The translations under genes were made by a program, and so were the position numbers. Source: Bacteroidales bacterium (GTDB lineage: Bacteria > Bacteroidota > Bacteroidia > Bacteroidales > JAUNSR01). From it: a stretch of 64,000 nt of DNA. Every line of letters begins with the position of its first letter. Position 1 is the stretch's first letter. The notes beneath the pieces are model-generated. The model was not told where the DNA came from, ran no database searches, and saw only the letters and a program-made list of their open reading frames with translations. Below are positions 2,609-61,565 of this stretch, in pieces. The stretch spans positions 206,770 through 270,769 of the forward strand of contig JAVVQG010000003.1 of the NCBI GenBank assembly GCA_036655355.1, given 5' to 3'.

Positions 2609-3901
2609 TCAAATGCCAAAAGCATCTTTTATCTTATCAACATAGTCGAGTTTCTCCCATGTGAACAATTCTACTTTTTTCACGATCGTTTCTGCATCGT
2701 ATCTTGATTTGAACGATTTCTCAACCACTTTAGGCGTGCGGCCCATGTGTCCGTAAGAAGCCGTTTCCTTGTAGATCGGGTTGCGTAGTTTCAAGCGCTG
2801 TTCGATCGCTTTTGGACGCATATCGAAGATCTCGTCAACTTTGGCAGCGATTTCAGAGTCGGTCAGGTTCACTTTCGCTTTTCCGTACGTATCGATGAAC
2901 AAGCTCACCGGTTTCGCTACACCGATTGCGTAAGCAACCTGTACGAGAACTTCGTCGGTAACGCCTGCCGCGACAAGGTTTTTCGCGATGTGACGTGCCG
3001 CGTAAGCAGCGGAACGGTCCACCTTGCTCGGATCTTTACCCGAGAATGCACCACCACCGTGAGCGCCTTTACCACCATAGGTATCTACGATGATTTTACG
3101 GCCGGTAAGACCCGTATCGCCATGAGGACCACCGATCACGAATTTACCCGTTGGGTTTACGTGAAGGATCAAGTTGGCGTCAAACAGGGCCTGAACACGT
3201 TCAGGAAGCAATTTGATAACGCGTGGAAGAAGAATGTTTTTCACGTCCTGACGGATCTGTTCCAACATCTCTTCGTCTGCTTTCAACTGCGCTTCTACGC
3301 TCGTGTTGGCAGGAACGATGAAATCGTCATGCTGTGTAGAAACCACGATCGTGTGAACGCGAACGGGTTCGTTATTTTTGTTGTATTCAACGGTAACCTG
3401 CGATTTTGAATCGGGACGAAGGTAAGTCATCTGCTCCCCTTCGCGGCGGATCGCTGCAAGCTCTTCCAACAGGATGTGAGAGAGGTTCAATGCAAGCGGC
3501 ATGTAAGAATCGGTTTCATTCGAAGCGTAACCGAACATCATACCTTGGTCACCGGCACCCTGGTCAAATTCATCCGCACGCTCCACACCGCGGTTGATAT
3601 CAGCCGACTGTTCGTGGATGGCAGAGAATACGCCACAAGCGTCTCCGTCAAATTTGTACTCGCTTTTTGTATAACCGATTTCGTTGATGACACGGCGAGC
3701 CGTATCCATCAGGTCAACATAAGCCGTAGACTTTACTTCACCGGCAAGTACAACCTGACCGGTTGTTACAAGCGTTTCGCAAGCTACTTTAGAGTTTTCG
3801 TCACGTGCCAAAAACTCATCAAGCAAAGCATCCGATATCTGATCGGCTACTTTATCCGGGTGTCCTTCCGACACCGATTCTGAGGTGAATAAATAATTCA
3901 T
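2609..3901 (-). CDS. metK: Methionine adenosyltransferase
   Basis: Motifs [19 protein letters not shown] and [16 protein letters not shown]. Confidence 0.99.
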
Positions 3902-4087
3902 ACCAATAGAGTTAAAAAGTTCAGAAAATCAAACGCACCAACGGGCGAAGATCTCTTATAAATCAGATTTTAAACGTATTGGAAGAACAGGTAGTGCGTC
4001 TGATCTGTATCAGCGGAGCATTCGAAAATCTCCCGCAATAACCTAATAGGGTGGGTTTGGCTCTAAAAAGAGGAAGTGCAGTACTTT

Positions 4088-4138
4088 GATCTTTAGCATT
4101 TTTTCGAGTGGTTGCAAGCGGCCAAATCCGTCCACATT
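4088..4138 (-). ncRNA. SAM-II (SAM-alpha-like) riboswitch aptamer upstream of metK
   Basis: Minus strand reads AAUGUGGACGGAUUUGGCCGCUUGCAACCACUCGAAAAAAUGCUAAAGAUC. It has a P1 GUGG/CCAC stem and the conserved GAUUU, CCG-UUGCAA and GCUAAA blocks of SAM-II. It lies just downstream of a TAnnTTTG promoter element and upstream of metK. Confidence 0.85.
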
Positions 4139-4152
4139 CTTTTCATACGCTG

Positions 4153-4721: not shown

Positions 4722-5777
4722 TCAGATGATCAACATTGCATCGCCGTAAGCGCCGAATCGGTAACCCTCTTTGATTGCGATCTGATACGCTTTCATCACC
4801 AAGTCATAATCTCCGAAAGCAGCCGTCATCATCAACATGGTTGACATCGGCAGGTGGAAATTCGTTACCAGGCTGTCGGCAACGGAGAACTCGTAAGGAG
4901 GGAAGATGAACTTGTTCGTCCAACCCGAATACGGTTTCAGATGCCCGTCGGTGCTCACCGTACTTTCAATGGCGCGCATCACAGATGTACCAACGGCACA
5001 GATGCGTCTTTTCTCGTCTTTCGCCTCGTTTACCAGTTTCACGATTTCCGGACCCACGTACATCTGTTCGGAATCCATTTTGTGTTTGGTAAGGTCTTCC
5101 ACGTCGATTTCACGGAAGTTTCCAAGACCTGAATGCAACGTCAGGAAGCCGTATTCGATCCCTTTGATCTCCATACGTTTCATCAGTTCGCGGCTGAAAT
5201 GCAGTCCGGCAGCAGGAGCCACCACGGCACCTTCGTTTTTGGCGAAGATGTTCTGGTAACGCTCTTCATCTTCCGGTTCGGCTTCGCGTTTCTCCTTCAT
5301 ATAAGGAGGAATCGGCGTTTTGCCCAGTGCATAAAGCGCATTTTTGAACTCCTCGTGCGTACCGTCATACAAGAAGCGTAGGGTACGGCCGCGGGAAGTG
5401 GTATTATCGATTACCTCGGCAACCATTGAATCGTCGTCACCGAAATACAATTTGTTACCGATACGGATTTTACGGGCAGGATCAACCAACACATCCCAAA
5501 GGCGGTGTTCTTCATTCAGTTCGCGAAGAAGGGTAACCTGAATCTTTGCGCCGGTTTTCTCTTTATTTCCTTCCAGATGTGCAGGGAAAACCTTGGTATC
5601 GTTGAATACGAATACGTCTTTATCGTCGAAGTATTCCAGGATATCTTTGAATACGCGATGCTCGATTTCGCCGGTAGCTCTGTGAATCACCATCATGCGT
5701 GATTCATCGCGATTTTTAACCGGGTGCAGCGCAATCAGCTCCTCAGGCAATTTAAATTTGAATTGCGATAATTTCAT
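4722..5777 (-). CDS. queA: S-adenosylmethionine:tRNA ribosyltransferase-isomerase
   Basis: Motifs [46 protein letters not shown] and [12 protein letters not shown]. Confidence 0.97.
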
Positions 5778-5868
5778 TTATATATAATTTATTTTTTACA
5801 TTAAAGTATAAATGCGCCATCTATATGCCTTCTATTGGGTAGCTCAACTTTAAGTGAGCTATGGCGAT
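5778..5868 (-). promoter_or_regulatory. Candidate structured cis-regulatory leader, copy A (upstream of queA)
   Basis: 59-nt core is 49/59 identical, ungapped, to 60868-60926. Stems CGCCAU/AUGGCG and AGCUCA/UGAGCU; similarity continues to the start codon. Confidence 0.7.
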
Positions 5869-5917
5869 TACATATGTATCTCTATTTATTTTTTTTAAAC
5901 AAGGTTGAATGCGTCAT

Positions 5918-6604
5918 TTACATGACACTATCCAGGAATTCATCGATCTTGTCTGCATCCTGACATTGTGCCAGGGTTACATCTCCGATTCGGGTACGGA
6001 TCAATCCGGTCAAGTGGGCTCCGCTGCCAAGCGCTTCACCAATGTCGCGAGCCAAGGCGCGGATATAAGTTCCTTTGCTACAAACCACGCGGATGGTGAT
6101 TTCCGGGAGGTCGTAACTGAGCAATTCTATCTCATCTATAACAAGCTCTTTGGCCTTTAGTTCAACTTCTTCTCCCTTGCGAGCCAGCTCATAAGCGCGC
6201 TTGCCGTCAACCTTCACCGCCGAATAGATGGGAGGGACCTGCCAGATGCTGCCTATGAATTTTTTCAGTGTGTCTTCCACCAGCTCACGGTTGATGTGGG
6301 CGGTTTCAAACGTTTTGTCAACCTCTGTTTCCTGATCGAAAGAGGGGGTGGTTTCGCCCAATCGCAGGGTAGCCACATACTCTTTGGTCTGATATTGGAA
6401 ACTCTCAATCTGTTTGGTGGCTTTTCCGGTGCAGATGATCATCACGCCCGAAGCGAGGGGATCAAGGGTACCGGCATGTCCGACCTTAAACTTTTTCACG
6501 TTCAACCGTCTGCTTAGTCGGTTGCGGATCTGTTTTACCAGGTAAAACGAAGTCCAGTGAAGCGGTTTATTAAAATATAAAACTTCTCCTTCTATAAAAT
6601 CCAT
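5918..6604 (-). CDS. truB: tRNA pseudouridine(55) synthase
   Basis: Motifs KVGHAGTLDPLASG, PPIYSAVKVDGKRAYELAR and CSKGTYIRAL. ATG at 6604 preferred over TTG at 6610. Confidence 0.98.
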   Translation of the reverse strand: MDFIEGEVLYFNKPLHWTSFYLVKQIRNRLSRRLNVKKFKVGHAGTLDPLASGVMIICTGKATKQIESFQYQTKEYVATLRLGETTPSFDQETEVDKTFETAHINRELVEDTLKKFIGSIWQVPPIYSAVKVDGKRAYELARKGEEVELKAKELVIDEIELLSYDLPEITIRVVCSKGTYIRALARDIGEALGSGAHLTGLIRTRIGDVTLAQCQDADKIDEFLDSVM

Positions 6605-6636
6605 CTTCAATAATTGATTAAATGCAGCCTATACGC

Positions 6637-59435: not shown

Positions 59436-59495
59436 ATTTTTTTCTCGCGTAGTTTCTTCACGCGTAGTTTCTTCAAACATGGTTTTCTCAAACAT
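59421..59495 (-). repeat. Five degenerate 15-bp tandem units across the mnmA start
   Basis: ATGTTTGAGAAAACC / ATGTTTGAAGAAACT / ACGCGTGAAGAAACT / ACGCGAGAAAAAAAT / ATGCGTGAAAAAAGA. Confidence 0.8.
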
Positions 59496-60708
59496 AGATC
59501 AATGTAGAAAGTTTCGATTCGTCAAATATTTCGTTTGCGGTTTCCAGGATATCGTTAGCGGTTATGTTTTGAATTTTTCGATACGCCTCATCCAGCGTAT
59601 CGAAACGATTGTAATGGAGATAAGATTTCGCCATCCCCATGGTTACGTTTTCCTTGTTGTCGTTCGAGATGCCGAGTTGACCTTTGATCTGTCTTTTCGC
59701 TCCTTCGAGTTGAGAGGAGGTGAGCGACTTATCGCGGAAATCTTTCAGCTCTTTATGCACGAGTTCGATGCATTTGTTCAGGTTTTTCTGATCGCAGCCG
59801 AAGTAGACCGAGAACACACCCGTGTCAGAATATGGCGTGAAGGCCGATTCCACGTTATACACGTATCCGCGTCTTTCACGCAGGGAGAGGTTCAGTCGGC
59901 TGTTCATACCCGGTCCCCCCAACATGTTGTTAAGAAGGGCGAGCGAAGCGCGTCGCGGATCGAACATATTGAACGCACGGTTTCCGATGATGACATGGCC
60001 CTGGTGGGTGTCACGCTCTTCACGCAGATGCGTCGGCGTATAAAGGGTGGGTGCCTGACGCTGATTTCCTTTCCATACGGCCGGGTCGGGATTAAAATAC
60101 TTCTCCAGTGCGCGTACCACTTTTTTGAAATCGGTTTTTCCCGTCGAGAAGAATACCATGTTTTCCGGGCGATACCATTTACAGAGAAAATCACGACCCA
60201 TTTCCGGGCTGAAAGATTCGAGCGATTCCTCTGTTCCCAAGATGTTGCGTCCCAGGGCGTGTCCTTGAAATAGTTTGTTCTCAAACTCATCGTAGATCAG
60301 TTCCGGTGGGTTATCGCGGTAAGAGTTGATCTCGTCCAGAATCACATCGGTTTCCTTTTCAAGTTCATTTTCCGGGAAACGGGAGTTCAAGACCAGATCG
60401 CACAGCAACTCGCTCGCACGGTCGAAATTCTCCTCCAGGAAAACCGAGTAAACGAAAGTCTCCTCTTTTGTAGTGTAAGCGTTCAATTCGCCGCCCACTT
60501 TCTCCATCCGGTTCAGAATATGCCAGGAGCGGCGCTTATCCGTTCCTTTAAAAATCATATGTTCCACCAGGTGAGCCATTCCGGATTCCGTAACCAGTTC
60601 ATCGCGTGTTCCGGCATTTACCGCGAAGCCGCAGTAAGAAACATCGGAAGTCGATGGCATGTGAATGATACGGAGTCCGTTGGGAAGCGTATGTTGTTGA
60701 TAATGCAT
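59488..60708 (-). CDS. M16 family (pitrilysin-like) zinc metallopeptidase
   Basis: LPNGLR, inverted zinc motif [19 protein letters not shown] and SRL...LRE.RGYVY; ATG at 60708. Confidence 0.95.
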
Positions 60709-60748: not shown

Positions 60749-60756
60749 TACTTTTG
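60749..60756 (+). promoter_or_regulatory. -7 promoter element TACTTTTG for the SIS/PfkB unit (divergent TAATTTTG at 60733-60740 for the M16 gene)
   Basis: Back-to-back TAnnTTTG matches between divergent genes. Confidence 0.6.
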
Positions 60757-60867
60757 CAGCGTAAGGTTCAATACCTCAATATCAAAATGAAAACCATTAC
60801 CTTCCGTTTTTACGATATATTATGGTAAATCAACGGATTGGTGATTCATATAACGGAACAACATCAG

Positions 60868-60956
60868 ATCGCCATAGCTCACCTAAGGATGAGCTACCCC
60901 ACGAAAGGTACTTAGATGGCGCATTTGACCTTAGTGTTAAAAATAGATATATACAA
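60868..60956 (+). promoter_or_regulatory. Candidate structured cis-regulatory leader, copy B (upstream of SIS-domain gene)
   Basis: Homologous to 5778-5868 (minus strand), with the same stems and nearly the same spacing to the ATG. Confidence 0.7.
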
Positions 60957-61565
60957 ATGAAAGAGACTATACGTACGATCCTTCAGAAAGAAGCTGAAGC
61001 GATCCTGAATCTTCCGATTACAGATGCTTATGAAAAAGCCGTAGCTTTGATTGTGGAGCAGGTGCATCAAAAAGGGGGAAAACTTGTGGTGAGCGGTATG
61101 GGAAAAGCGGGACAGATCGGCATGAACATCGCTACAACGTTCAGTTCTACCGGAACTCCTGCCATCTACCTACACCCGAGTGAAGCGCAGCATGGTGATT
61201 TGGGAGTGATCCAGAAGAACGATGTGATGCTTCTGATTTCAAACTCCGGGAAGACCCGCGAGATTTTGGAGCTGATTCTCTTGGCGCACAACCTTAATCC
61301 GGGCATTCGTTTTATCGTCATTACAGGCAATCAGGAGAGTCCGTTGGCTGAAGAAGCCGATATTTGTCTCTTTACGGGCAATCCGTCGGAGGTTTGTCCC
61401 CTGGGACTTACCCCGACCACCTCAACTACGATGATGACCGTTATCGGCGATTTGCTGGTGGTGAATACGATGAAAAGTATTAACTTCACAAATGAACAAT
61501 ATGCCAAACGCCACCACGGCGGCTATCTTGGCGAGAAATCAAGAAAACAATCGACTAACGATTGA
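60957..61565 (+). CDS. SIS-only KpsF/GutQ family sugar-phosphate isomerase (probable arabinose-5-phosphate isomerase)
   Basis: SGMGKAG.IG, STGTP, HPSEAQHGDLG, ISNSGKT.E, PTTSTT and HHGGYLG; no CBS domains; ATG at 60957. Confidence 0.9.
   Translation: MKETIRTILQKEAEAILNLPITDAYEKAVALIVEQVHQKGGKLVVSGMGKAGQIGMNIATTFSSTGTPAIYLHPSEAQHGDLGVIQKNDVMLLISNSGKTREILELILLAHNLNPGIRFIVITGNQESPLAEEADICLFTGNPSEVCPLGLTPTTSTTMMTVIGDLLVVNTMKSINFTNEQYAKRHHGGYLGEKSRKQSTND

Follow-up and report, generated by a model that had tools for sequence, protein, structure and literature searches.

A Short Dispersed Repeat Fused to the Start Codons of Unrelated Genes in a Bacteroidales Bacterium

Introduction

Repeats that bring their own start codon to the genes they precede represent a known but rare architecture in bacterial genomes. 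The closest described systems are REP2 of Neisseria and the similar IR-A/IR-B of Borrelia plasmids, which measure 120-150 bp, lack terminal inverted repeats (TIRs) and present two internal stem-loops near their 5' end (Delihas, 2011; PMC3184786). REP2 is described with a promoter, a ribosome-binding site (RBS) and an ATG fused to downstream open reading frames (ORFs), in 23-26 copies and in association with contact-regulated genes, and the origin and mode of proliferation of such start-codon-carrying repeats are presented as an open question (PMC3184786). Here we report a repeat of about 95 nucleotides (nt) in a Bacteroidales bacterium. Two of its copies lie in the 64,000-nt stretch that was analyzed (the window; contig JAVVQG010000003.1 of assembly GCA_036655355.1, positions 206,770 to 270,769), one before queA (copy A) and one before a gene encoding a SIS-domain protein (copy B). 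We consider it, with a probability of about 0.6, a lineage-specific, start-codon-targeting, non-autonomous dispersed repeat that replaces the leader of the gene at which it lands.

REP2 and the Bacteroidales repeat are both dispersed intergenic repeats of about 100-150 bp without TIRs, with internal stem-loops in their 5' part and, immediately upstream of unrelated ORFs, with 5' untranslated sequence and an ATG of their own fused to these ORFs. The likeness appears to be one of architecture, and the host belongs to another phylum. The Bacteroidales repeat further differs from REP2, with its 23-26 copies, in its number (about 185 matches per genome), in its head-to-tail arrays whose units have an ATGAAA in common, and in a second, 5' ATGAAA that opens a frame of four codons. 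No Shine-Dalgarno (SD) site and no recognisable promoter are seen inside it, whereas REP2 is described with both, and we have no evidence of co-regulation. New with respect to REP2 are the other phylum, the several-fold higher copy number, the arrays and the decoy start.

A second point of comparison is provided by the putative mobile promoters of Matus-Garcia, Nijveen and van Passel (2012), whose survey, according to a commentary, covers positions -150 to -50 and yields mostly pairs (PMC3575422). Like these, the present family consists of highly similar non-coding sequences before non-homologous genes of one genome; unlike them, it spans positions -95 to +6, includes the start codon and numbers more than 100 members. 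A limited literature search retrieved no described start-codon-carrying repeat in Bacteroidetes or Bacteroidales.

Other short, structured, high-copy intergenic repeats, such as REP/BIME, REPIN-RAYT, ERIC, Correia, BOX and RUP, are often co-transcribed in operons. The Bacteroidales repeat resembles this group by its small size, structure, high copy number, compensated stems and subfamilies, but exhibits neither TIRs nor a TA target, and it differs from REP/REPIN by the absence of a RAYT (Y1_Tnp) gene from the genome and of inverted pairs. To our knowledge, none of REP, ERIC, Correia, BOX and RUP shows a strict sense orientation together with a single-base start-codon register. Certain elements of the IS110 family insert at fixed sites by start codons, IS900 doing so between the RBS and the ATG. 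They share with the repeat an apparently sequence- and orientation-specific insertion beside start codons and the lack of TIRs; on the contrary, the repeat encodes nothing, and the IS110-like gene of its genome, which is split, lies within one of the repeat copies and was absent from the matches in the four other repeat-bearing genomes. Classification as a MITE (miniature inverted-repeat transposable element) was rejected for want of TIRs and of a parent insertion sequence with the same ends.

A Repeat Family Fused to Start Codons

The preliminary description of the window started from two 59-nt stretches, at 5868-5810 on the minus strand and 60868-60926 on the plus strand, and took them for a leader shared by two unrelated genes. 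Both the coordinates and the ungapped identity of 49/59 were confirmed, and the similarity continues beyond the 59-mer, across the spacer and up to ATGAAA. The core pattern CGCCATAGCTCA-N8-TGAGCTACCC is found twice in the window at 0 mismatches and in none of 100 dinucleotide shuffles. At the scale of the genome (hereafter G000; 3.47 Mb, 24 contigs, 44% G+C, 99.99% complete), it has 73 matches with up to three mismatches, against 0 for the reversed pattern used as a control. An nhmmer profile made from 55 copies retrieved 185 matches at E<1e-3, amounting to 16.6 kb, so that about 183 further copies lie outside the window and the leader is not private to two genes. Truncation is asymmetric: besides 114 full-length matches, there are 54 without the 5' part and 17 without the 3' part. 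Chaining of the matches yielded 159 loci (135 single, 22 double and 2 triple), including 24 tandem arrays with a period of 94-96 nt; the unit measures about 95 nt.

In the aligned copies the unit reads, from 5' to 3', (A)ATGAAA, TCGCCAT (5' strand of stem P1), the hairpin P2 (AGCTCA-N8-TGAGWT), the hairpin P3 (ACC-N8-GGT), ATAGATGGCG (3' strand of P1), CATTTGACC, an A/U-rich stretch ending in ATATACAA, and ATGAAA again. Its 3' half starts at GGCGCATTTGACC and comprises the A/U-rich leader up to ATATACAA and the final ATGAAA, which neighbouring units of an array have in common. No purine-rich SD sequence was seen before the ATG in the aligned copies.

An ATG occupies the expected position in 159 of the 168 matches that reach the 3' end, the other nine being devoid of it. 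As many as 112 of these ATGs open an ORF of at least 60 amino acids (aa), many of 200-1500 aa, whereas only 26% of 5000 random ATGs do so; 26 lead into the next tandem unit, where the frame reads ATG AAA TCG CCA TAG (MKSP-stop), and 21 open other short frames. About one gene in 20 in G000 thus starts within a repeat copy (112 fused ORFs versus about 2570 crude genes). All gene-reaching copies lie in sense and end in the start codon of the gene, in agreement with the portable translation-initiation module that had been put forward as one possibility, and their orientation is therefore non-random, unlike that of an ordinary MITE. The preliminary description had opposed to its own proposal a REP- or MITE-like repeat inserted in random orientation: many copies and direct-repeat flanks were indeed found, random orientation was not.

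The neighbourhoods were counted on a set of 2570 crude ORFs. Cleanly intergenic positions account for 139 of the 159 loci, and the other 20 overlap a crude ORF, mostly one that the caller extended across the repeat from an in-frame ATG further upstream. At 100 of the 139 intergenic loci, a same-strand ORF of at least 90 aa begins no more than 20 nt from the 3' end; 25 of the remaining ones have a more distant same-strand ORF and 14 face an ORF on the opposite strand. The upstream neighbour is co-directional at 87 of the 139 loci, with a median gap of 29 nt (65 within 100 nt), so that many copies essentially constitute the entire intercistronic spacer. It is divergent at the other 52, with a median gap of 219.5 nt (measured at 46 of them).

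Sixteen downstream proteins were scanned for families, giving QueA, SIS, WG-repeat, META, two SusD, ATP synthase a, an SSF transporter fusion, Lyase_1, DUF5723, OmpA-like, HMA, a TPP enzyme, a GT4 glycosyltransferase, DUF1573 and one protein without family. These genes are functionally unrelated and form no regulon. For five genes (queA and the SIS-domain, Fer4_12, Lyase_1 and GT genes), the ATG start is the same in orthologues that bear the repeat and in those that do not.

Tandem neighbours are 91% identical (median of 18 pairs), compared to 73% for dispersed pairs, and the closest relative of 22 of the 34 array members is an array-mate; local duplication is the best explanation for most of the arrays. 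Downstream of the 17 3'-truncated copies lie unrelated sequence or terminator-like hairpins, and no transposase gene adjoins them. Strong hairpins of this kind directly follow the truncated copies at G000:C9:68716-68850, C1:243356-243300, C14:36404-36340 and C2:314537-314470, where the 5' three-way part alone precedes the terminator, in the manner of a small RNA gene or of a convergent gene's end.

Distribution and Filled or Empty Sites Among Relatives

A covariance model built from 70 copies was run on nine genomes of the genus and on 32 genomes from 32 other families of the order. The family is restricted to part of the genus: it occurs in G000 and in four of the eight other species genomes, with 54 to at least 91 matches in each of these four, and gave no match in the other four (71-95% complete) nor in the 32 genomes of other families. 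Plasmid, phage and viral-contig collections likewise held no match to the repeat. A scan of 185,579 species genomes with the exact pattern added a single record, a Bacteroidales metagenome-assembled genome (L103), and understates the range since this pattern is specific to G000 (ATAGCTCA). A long pattern of 49 nt, found in one of 41 genomes (G000 itself), was too strict for the relatives, and the covariance model was used instead. The consensus varies by species, with ATAGCTCA / TATAGATGG in G000 and ATAACTCA / TATAAATGG in the sisters. Two near-identical metagenome contigs carry look-alikes (L109:1009-1069 and L110:1046-1106, both on the minus strand) that have in common with the repeat only the TCGCCATAACTCA and ATGGCGCATTTG blocks; their interior is unrelated, and an A/U-rich stretch and an ATGAAG come further on. 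The covariance model gave them no score at E<=1e-4, and they may represent a second family built on the same closing stem.

Comparison of orthologous loci reveals sites that are filled in one species and empty in another. At queA, only G000 has the repeat, and the site is empty in G001, G005, G006, G007 and G008. Similarly, G000 alone bears the repeat at the Lyase_1 gene among six genomes, and at the GT gene among the five genomes that have the 5' end of that gene. The SIS-domain gene is preceded by a full copy in G000 and by a copy without its 5' part in G005, both with the same private 1-nt deletion variant, and by none in G008, G006 and G001. In the other direction, G008 has a filled site at the Fer4_12 (NrdG-like) gene where G000 has an empty one. 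The empty site there reads ...ttagaaATGAATTATCAC and the filled one ...ataacaaATGAAA[TCGCC...ATATACAA]ATGAATTATCAC; the native ATGAAT is retained at the 3' copy of the motif and ATGAAA stands at the 5' copy. As the native second codon persists on the 3' side and the A of the element is found on the 5' side, the junction falls inside ATGAA. At the GT gene, only 3-8 nt separate the upstream stop from the ATG in empty sites, whereas G000 presents about 18 nt of the 3' end of a unit, ATGAAA and a full unit, i.e., about 1.2 units. Orthologues of the ATP synthase a gene were uninformative, their N-termini being unaligned, and the gene L083 of G002 has no orthologue in G000. Together with the array identities, the flanks and the asymmetric truncation, these comparisons point to acquisitions after speciation in more than one lineage, to array formation by local duplication, and to decay sparing the 3' half.

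The flanks of the copies were compared as well. Positions -6 to -1 of the 5' flank show the majority letter in 76-98% of loci, and (A)ATGAA(A) is present at both ends. Within a locus, non-majority letters are common to the 5' flank and the 3' end in 35 of 112 cases, versus 18.3 +/- 3.9 after shuffling (0 of 10000 shuffles reach 35). Long partner-specific duplications, of 19-24 nt, are few. A long target-site duplication as a general rule was rejected, the longest match being with the locus's own partner at only 4 of 82 loci.

The Two Copies of the Window

Copy A lies between truB (5918-6610, minus strand) and queA (4722-5777, minus strand). Its unit body (5778-5867, minus strand) extends from TCGCC through the three-way stem region, GGCGCATTTA and the A/U-rich leader to the base before the start of queA, and scores 87.1 bits with nhmmer (C3:212645-212540, model positions 3-107) and 111.9 bits with the covariance model. 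The 3' ATGAAA (5772-5777) forms the start codon and second codon of queA (Queuosine_synth, 7e-129), whose start is the same in five sister genomes. At the 5' end, the flanking repeat of the start motif (5868-5873) reads ATGTAA where the family majority is ATGAAA, and occupies the place expected for the native queA ATGAAA prior to insertion; the leader 5' of it (atagagatacat) resembles the native leader of the empty queA site in G008 (catagagaat). From sequence and folding, the P1 strands of this copy are placed at 5861-5866 (CGCCAT) and 5815-5820 (ATGGCG), compensated variants of the family adding to the evidence, and the P2 hairpin AGCTCA-N8-TGAGCT at 5841-5860. Next to P1, the hexamer CATTTA (5809-5814; CATTTG in the family) is complementary to the TAAATG/CAAATG that holds either ATG, a G-C pair being replaced here by A-U (CATTTA with TAAATG).

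Copy B is located between a divergent M16 peptidase gene (59488-60705, minus strand) and the SIS-domain gene (60957-61565, plus strand). The unit body runs on the plus strand from TCGCC to the base before the gene (60869-60956; C3:267632-267732, 94.6 bits, and 112.3 bits with the covariance model), and its 3' ATGAAA (60957-60962) is the start of the SIS-domain gene (SIS, 7e-22), a start codon shared by the orthologues. Its predicted P1 strands, again from sequence and folding, lie at 60870-60875 (CGCCAT) and 60916-60921, the latter within ATGGCG followed by CATTTG (60916-60927). As previously noticed, CGCCAT/ATGGCG and AGCTCA/TGAGCT are both intact in the two copies, and the 59-mer precedes an ATG in sense by 32 nt in copy A (ATG 5777-5775) and 30 nt in copy B (ATG 60957-60959). 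These ATGs are native starts, the orthologues in sister genomes beginning at the same codon. An in-frame ATG at 60822 gives an ORF (60822-61565, plus strand) that crosses copy B into the SIS-domain gene, and gene callers may consequently add a false N-terminal extension of 45 aa to this protein. More generally, start sites can be miscalled through the repeat, and 20 of 159 loci, mostly for this reason, overlap a crude ORF.

Contigs assembled from public DNA (runs X3 and X5) end at or in copy A, at about 5776-5797 of the window, where their summed depth peaks. The repeat thus breaks short-read assemblies, and copy numbers in draft genomes are lower bounds. In run X5, two contigs with a loose end at 5777 have another sequence upstream of queA; they may belong to a relative and were not used. 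A run of N, i.e., an assembly gap, is also present inside a tandem array of G000 (C1:274136-274341).

Proposed Mode of Spread

We propose that the repeat integrates in sense at the ATGAA of start codons. The former leader would thereafter sit 5' of the element, together with a copy of ATGAA(A) that would either open the four-codon decoy frame (ATG AAA TCG CCA TAG) or decay. The 3' half of the element would supply a fresh A/U-rich, weakly structured leader ending in ...ATATACAA and abutting the ATG of the gene, so that the start and second codon stay intact. Bacteroidetes hosts do not depend on SD pairing. In such a host the insertion should be tolerated, and copies would, on this proposal, survive almost only at gene starts. 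The 5' half probably folds, as RNA or single-stranded DNA, with P1 closing around two small hairpins, and the element is most likely transcribed within the host mRNA, as a 5' untranslated region (UTR) or intercistronic spacer, and not from a promoter of its own. We thus infer present or past mobility of the repeat, its tolerance through a rebuilt initiation region, and its transcription together with the gene.

A mobilising enzyme was sought in G000 and none was found for the repeat. The genome has no Y1/RAYT gene (0 matches to PF01797, a search that was positive in 6 of 14 reference genomes used as a control). A single reverse transcriptase gene and a single split IS110-like gene were considered as mobilisers and rejected, each occurring in G000 only among nine genomes, four of which are 71-77% complete. 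The IS110-like gene, at about 1252-2975 of locus L105 (G000:C2:216264-219698), combines DEDD_Tnp_IS110 with a truncated Transposase_20, whose match stops at profile position 52 of 87, and is split into ORFs 1435-2385 and 2421-2708. It lies inside a repeat copy, preceded by a full unit and a degenerate 5' half and followed by unit-like ...TTATATATAAATGAAA, and looks like an insertion sequence that used the repeat as a target and interrupted a copy. Neither was a parent element found, including at the 17 3'-truncated copies. A tRNA-derived SINE origin gained no support, ARAGORN detecting no tRNA-like gene in the element.

Besides the missing enzyme, several observations weigh against a start-codon-targeting mobile repeat. 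There are no TIRs, the inverted repeats being all internal (CGCCAT/ATGGCG, CATTTG/CAAATG and the leader hairpin), and mobility is deduced from filled and empty sites, which could differ between species through loss as well. The dispersed copies have a median identity of only 73%, so that much of the family is old, and the better-kept 3' half could reflect host selection and not selfish spread. Remnants of units duplicated locally could also account for the correlation between flanks; moreover, the leftward extension averages 7.8 against 7.0 for non-partners, and exceeds every other locus at 4 of 82 loci. The gene starts of the control set were taken from a crude ORF caller. Finally, the only RNA run (X14, share 0.10) among the 20 listed runs that hold part of the stretch gave three small contigs inside queA and none on the element.

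A more specific account, to which we give tentative credit, is that of a start-codon-seeking mobile element of an undescribed kind, whose copies would be made on a circular template or a concatemer and then attached at the start codon. The joining, in the same tentative terms, might be of rolling-circle, template-switch or target-primed type and be performed by a host or another enzyme. The copies are anchored on their 3' side in ATGAA and extend in 5' direction over less than one unit (54 copies), exactly one, about 1.2 (GT, Lyase_1) or two to three units, and partial and full units at one locus carry common private variants. This is the pattern expected from such a template. Each copy would then provide its gene with a ready-made, SD-independent initiation region.

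The repeat offers a natural experiment on translation initiation in Bacteroidetes, with the same leader before more than 100 genes and the empty sites of sister species as controls. It also makes the question of proliferation raised by Delihas (2011) testable, given a junction defined within ATGAA and recent insertions in both directions between species. The repeat may in addition serve as a compact portable initiation cassette for Bacteroidales engineering.

RNA Structure and Possible Control of Translation

The absence of a recognised family, noted in the preliminary description, was upheld: the Rfam scan of the window at gathering threshold gave nothing at either copy, and scans by E-value of both copies and of a consensus-like copy returned only noise far below threshold (rox2, rliA and miRNA families). 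Single copies are predicted to fold with P1 closing P2 and P3, with modest z-scores of -1.45, -2.68, -2.70 and -2.34. P1 is paired in 93% of cells over 70 copies and shows compensated variants (CGCCAU/AUGGCG, CGUCCU/AGGACG and CGCCCU/AGGGCG); doubly changed cells number 11 versus 2.9 expected (0 of 500 shuffles), a test that overstates the signal since the copies are related. P2 is paired in 70% of cells only. Of this stem, present in both copies of the window, the second pair (G-C in the window) did not hold family-wide, being unpaired in 44 of 70 copies, and the compensatory change that had been seen at the tip concerns a pair that 59 of 70 copies leave open. Pairing over the three-way structure as a whole amounts to 81.1% compared to 80.1% in shuffles, RNAalifold retains P1 only (-2.39 kcal/mol), and 19 cross-species copies exhibited no covariation, with one doubly changed cell. 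The larger alignment thus yields compensated changes in P1 and none beyond shuffles elsewhere, and compensatory change appears confined to P1.

It has to be considered whether the repeat is kept because its RNA serves the cell, as a post-transcriptional control module recruited by the host. This and the promoter function discussed below are not mutually exclusive. In a first version, CAUUUG, which adjoins P1 on its 3' side, would pair either with the decoy CAAAUG, so that the real AUG stays accessible, or with the CAAAUG at the real start, which would thereby be masked, and the output might be set by translation of the decoy frame or by a factor bound to the three-way junction. In a second, the junction might stabilise or delimit cistrons in polycistronic mRNA. 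Most copies allow either CAUUUG pairing (paired cells amount to 94% with the 3' partner and 87% with the 5' one), with few double changes such as the G-C to A-U of copy A, and minimum free energy (MFE) folds of different copies adopt one or the other. The 3' half forms an imperfect hairpin with 17-nt arms, 71% complementary, and the two hexamers at its base. The predicted openness from -20 to +10 around the AUG is 0.67 in full copies (n=70), 0.59 in 5'-truncated ones (n=41) and 0.53 at 250 other crude starts. A role in control would also account for the strict sense orientation and AUG register, for the persistence of the 3' half from GGCGCATTTGACC in the 54 copies that lost the 5' half, for the compensated P1 variants and for the 87 of 139 loci in intercistronic position with their short gaps.

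On the contrary, the downstream genes have no function in common, close sister species have the same genes without the element, and half of the genus lacks the family. The arrays and decayed copies resemble selfish DNA and not a tuned regulator. The modest z-scores, a helix of only 6 bp, which is weak, and covariation outside P1 no better than in shuffles and absent across species argue in the same direction. Either version of the control module, as well as the module in general, therefore appears unlikely to us.

Promoters and Transcription

Another explanation, which we hold to be improbable, is that of a mobile promoter, with downstream transcription starting inside the repeat, as for Neisseria REP2 or Correia, and rewiring the genes it precedes. 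REP2, the closest analogue, is described with a promoter, an RBS and an ATG (PMC3184786), and a class of putative mobile promoters has been proposed (PMC3575422). Many copies lie about 29 nt past the end of a gene, where an internal promoter would make the downstream gene independent. In Bacteroidetes, the -7 promoter box has the consensus TAnnTTTG, and TTTG fits that of the -33 element. The conserved 3' half of the repeat does contain such a TTTG, but TAnnTTTG occurs inside only 4 of the 159 loci, compared to 19 of the 46 divergent loci when the gap upstream of the repeat is considered, and a simple scan for sigma-70-type sites found none in either copy of the window. No promoter of its own is evident in the repeat, judging from these motifs.

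A conserved candidate box is present instead upstream of copy B. The sequence TACTTTTG (60749-60756, plus strand), which we take to fit the -7 consensus TAnnTTTG, lies about 110 nt upstream of the copy, and the surrounding aaaaataaatacttttgcag is conserved in G005 and G008, neither of which has a full copy there. In both of these sister genomes the ATG comes much sooner after the box than in G000; the distance is about 33 nt in G008 and about 200 nt, including copy B, in G000. If the TACTTTTG box is used, copy B lies within a 5' UTR.

A riboswitch or other ligand- or protein-sensing leader of a small regulon made of queA and the SIS-domain gene, as initially suspected from two copies with intact P1 and P2 before ATGs and without match to a known family, is contradicted by 185 copies fronting unrelated genes, partly in tandem arrays, by the empty queA site in all five sister genomes examined, by the second pair and the claimed tip pair of P2 being mostly unpaired family-wide, and by minimal covariation outside P1, and is rejected.

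Other Features of the Window

A riboswitch of a known type is found elsewhere in the window. A SAM-II long-loop riboswitch (RF01726) at 4083-4141 on the minus strand scores 55.3 bits, for a gathering score of 44, and is the sole Rfam family at gathering score in the window. It lies directly upstream of metK (2609-3901, minus strand; S-AdoMet synthetase domains), an ordinary pairing.

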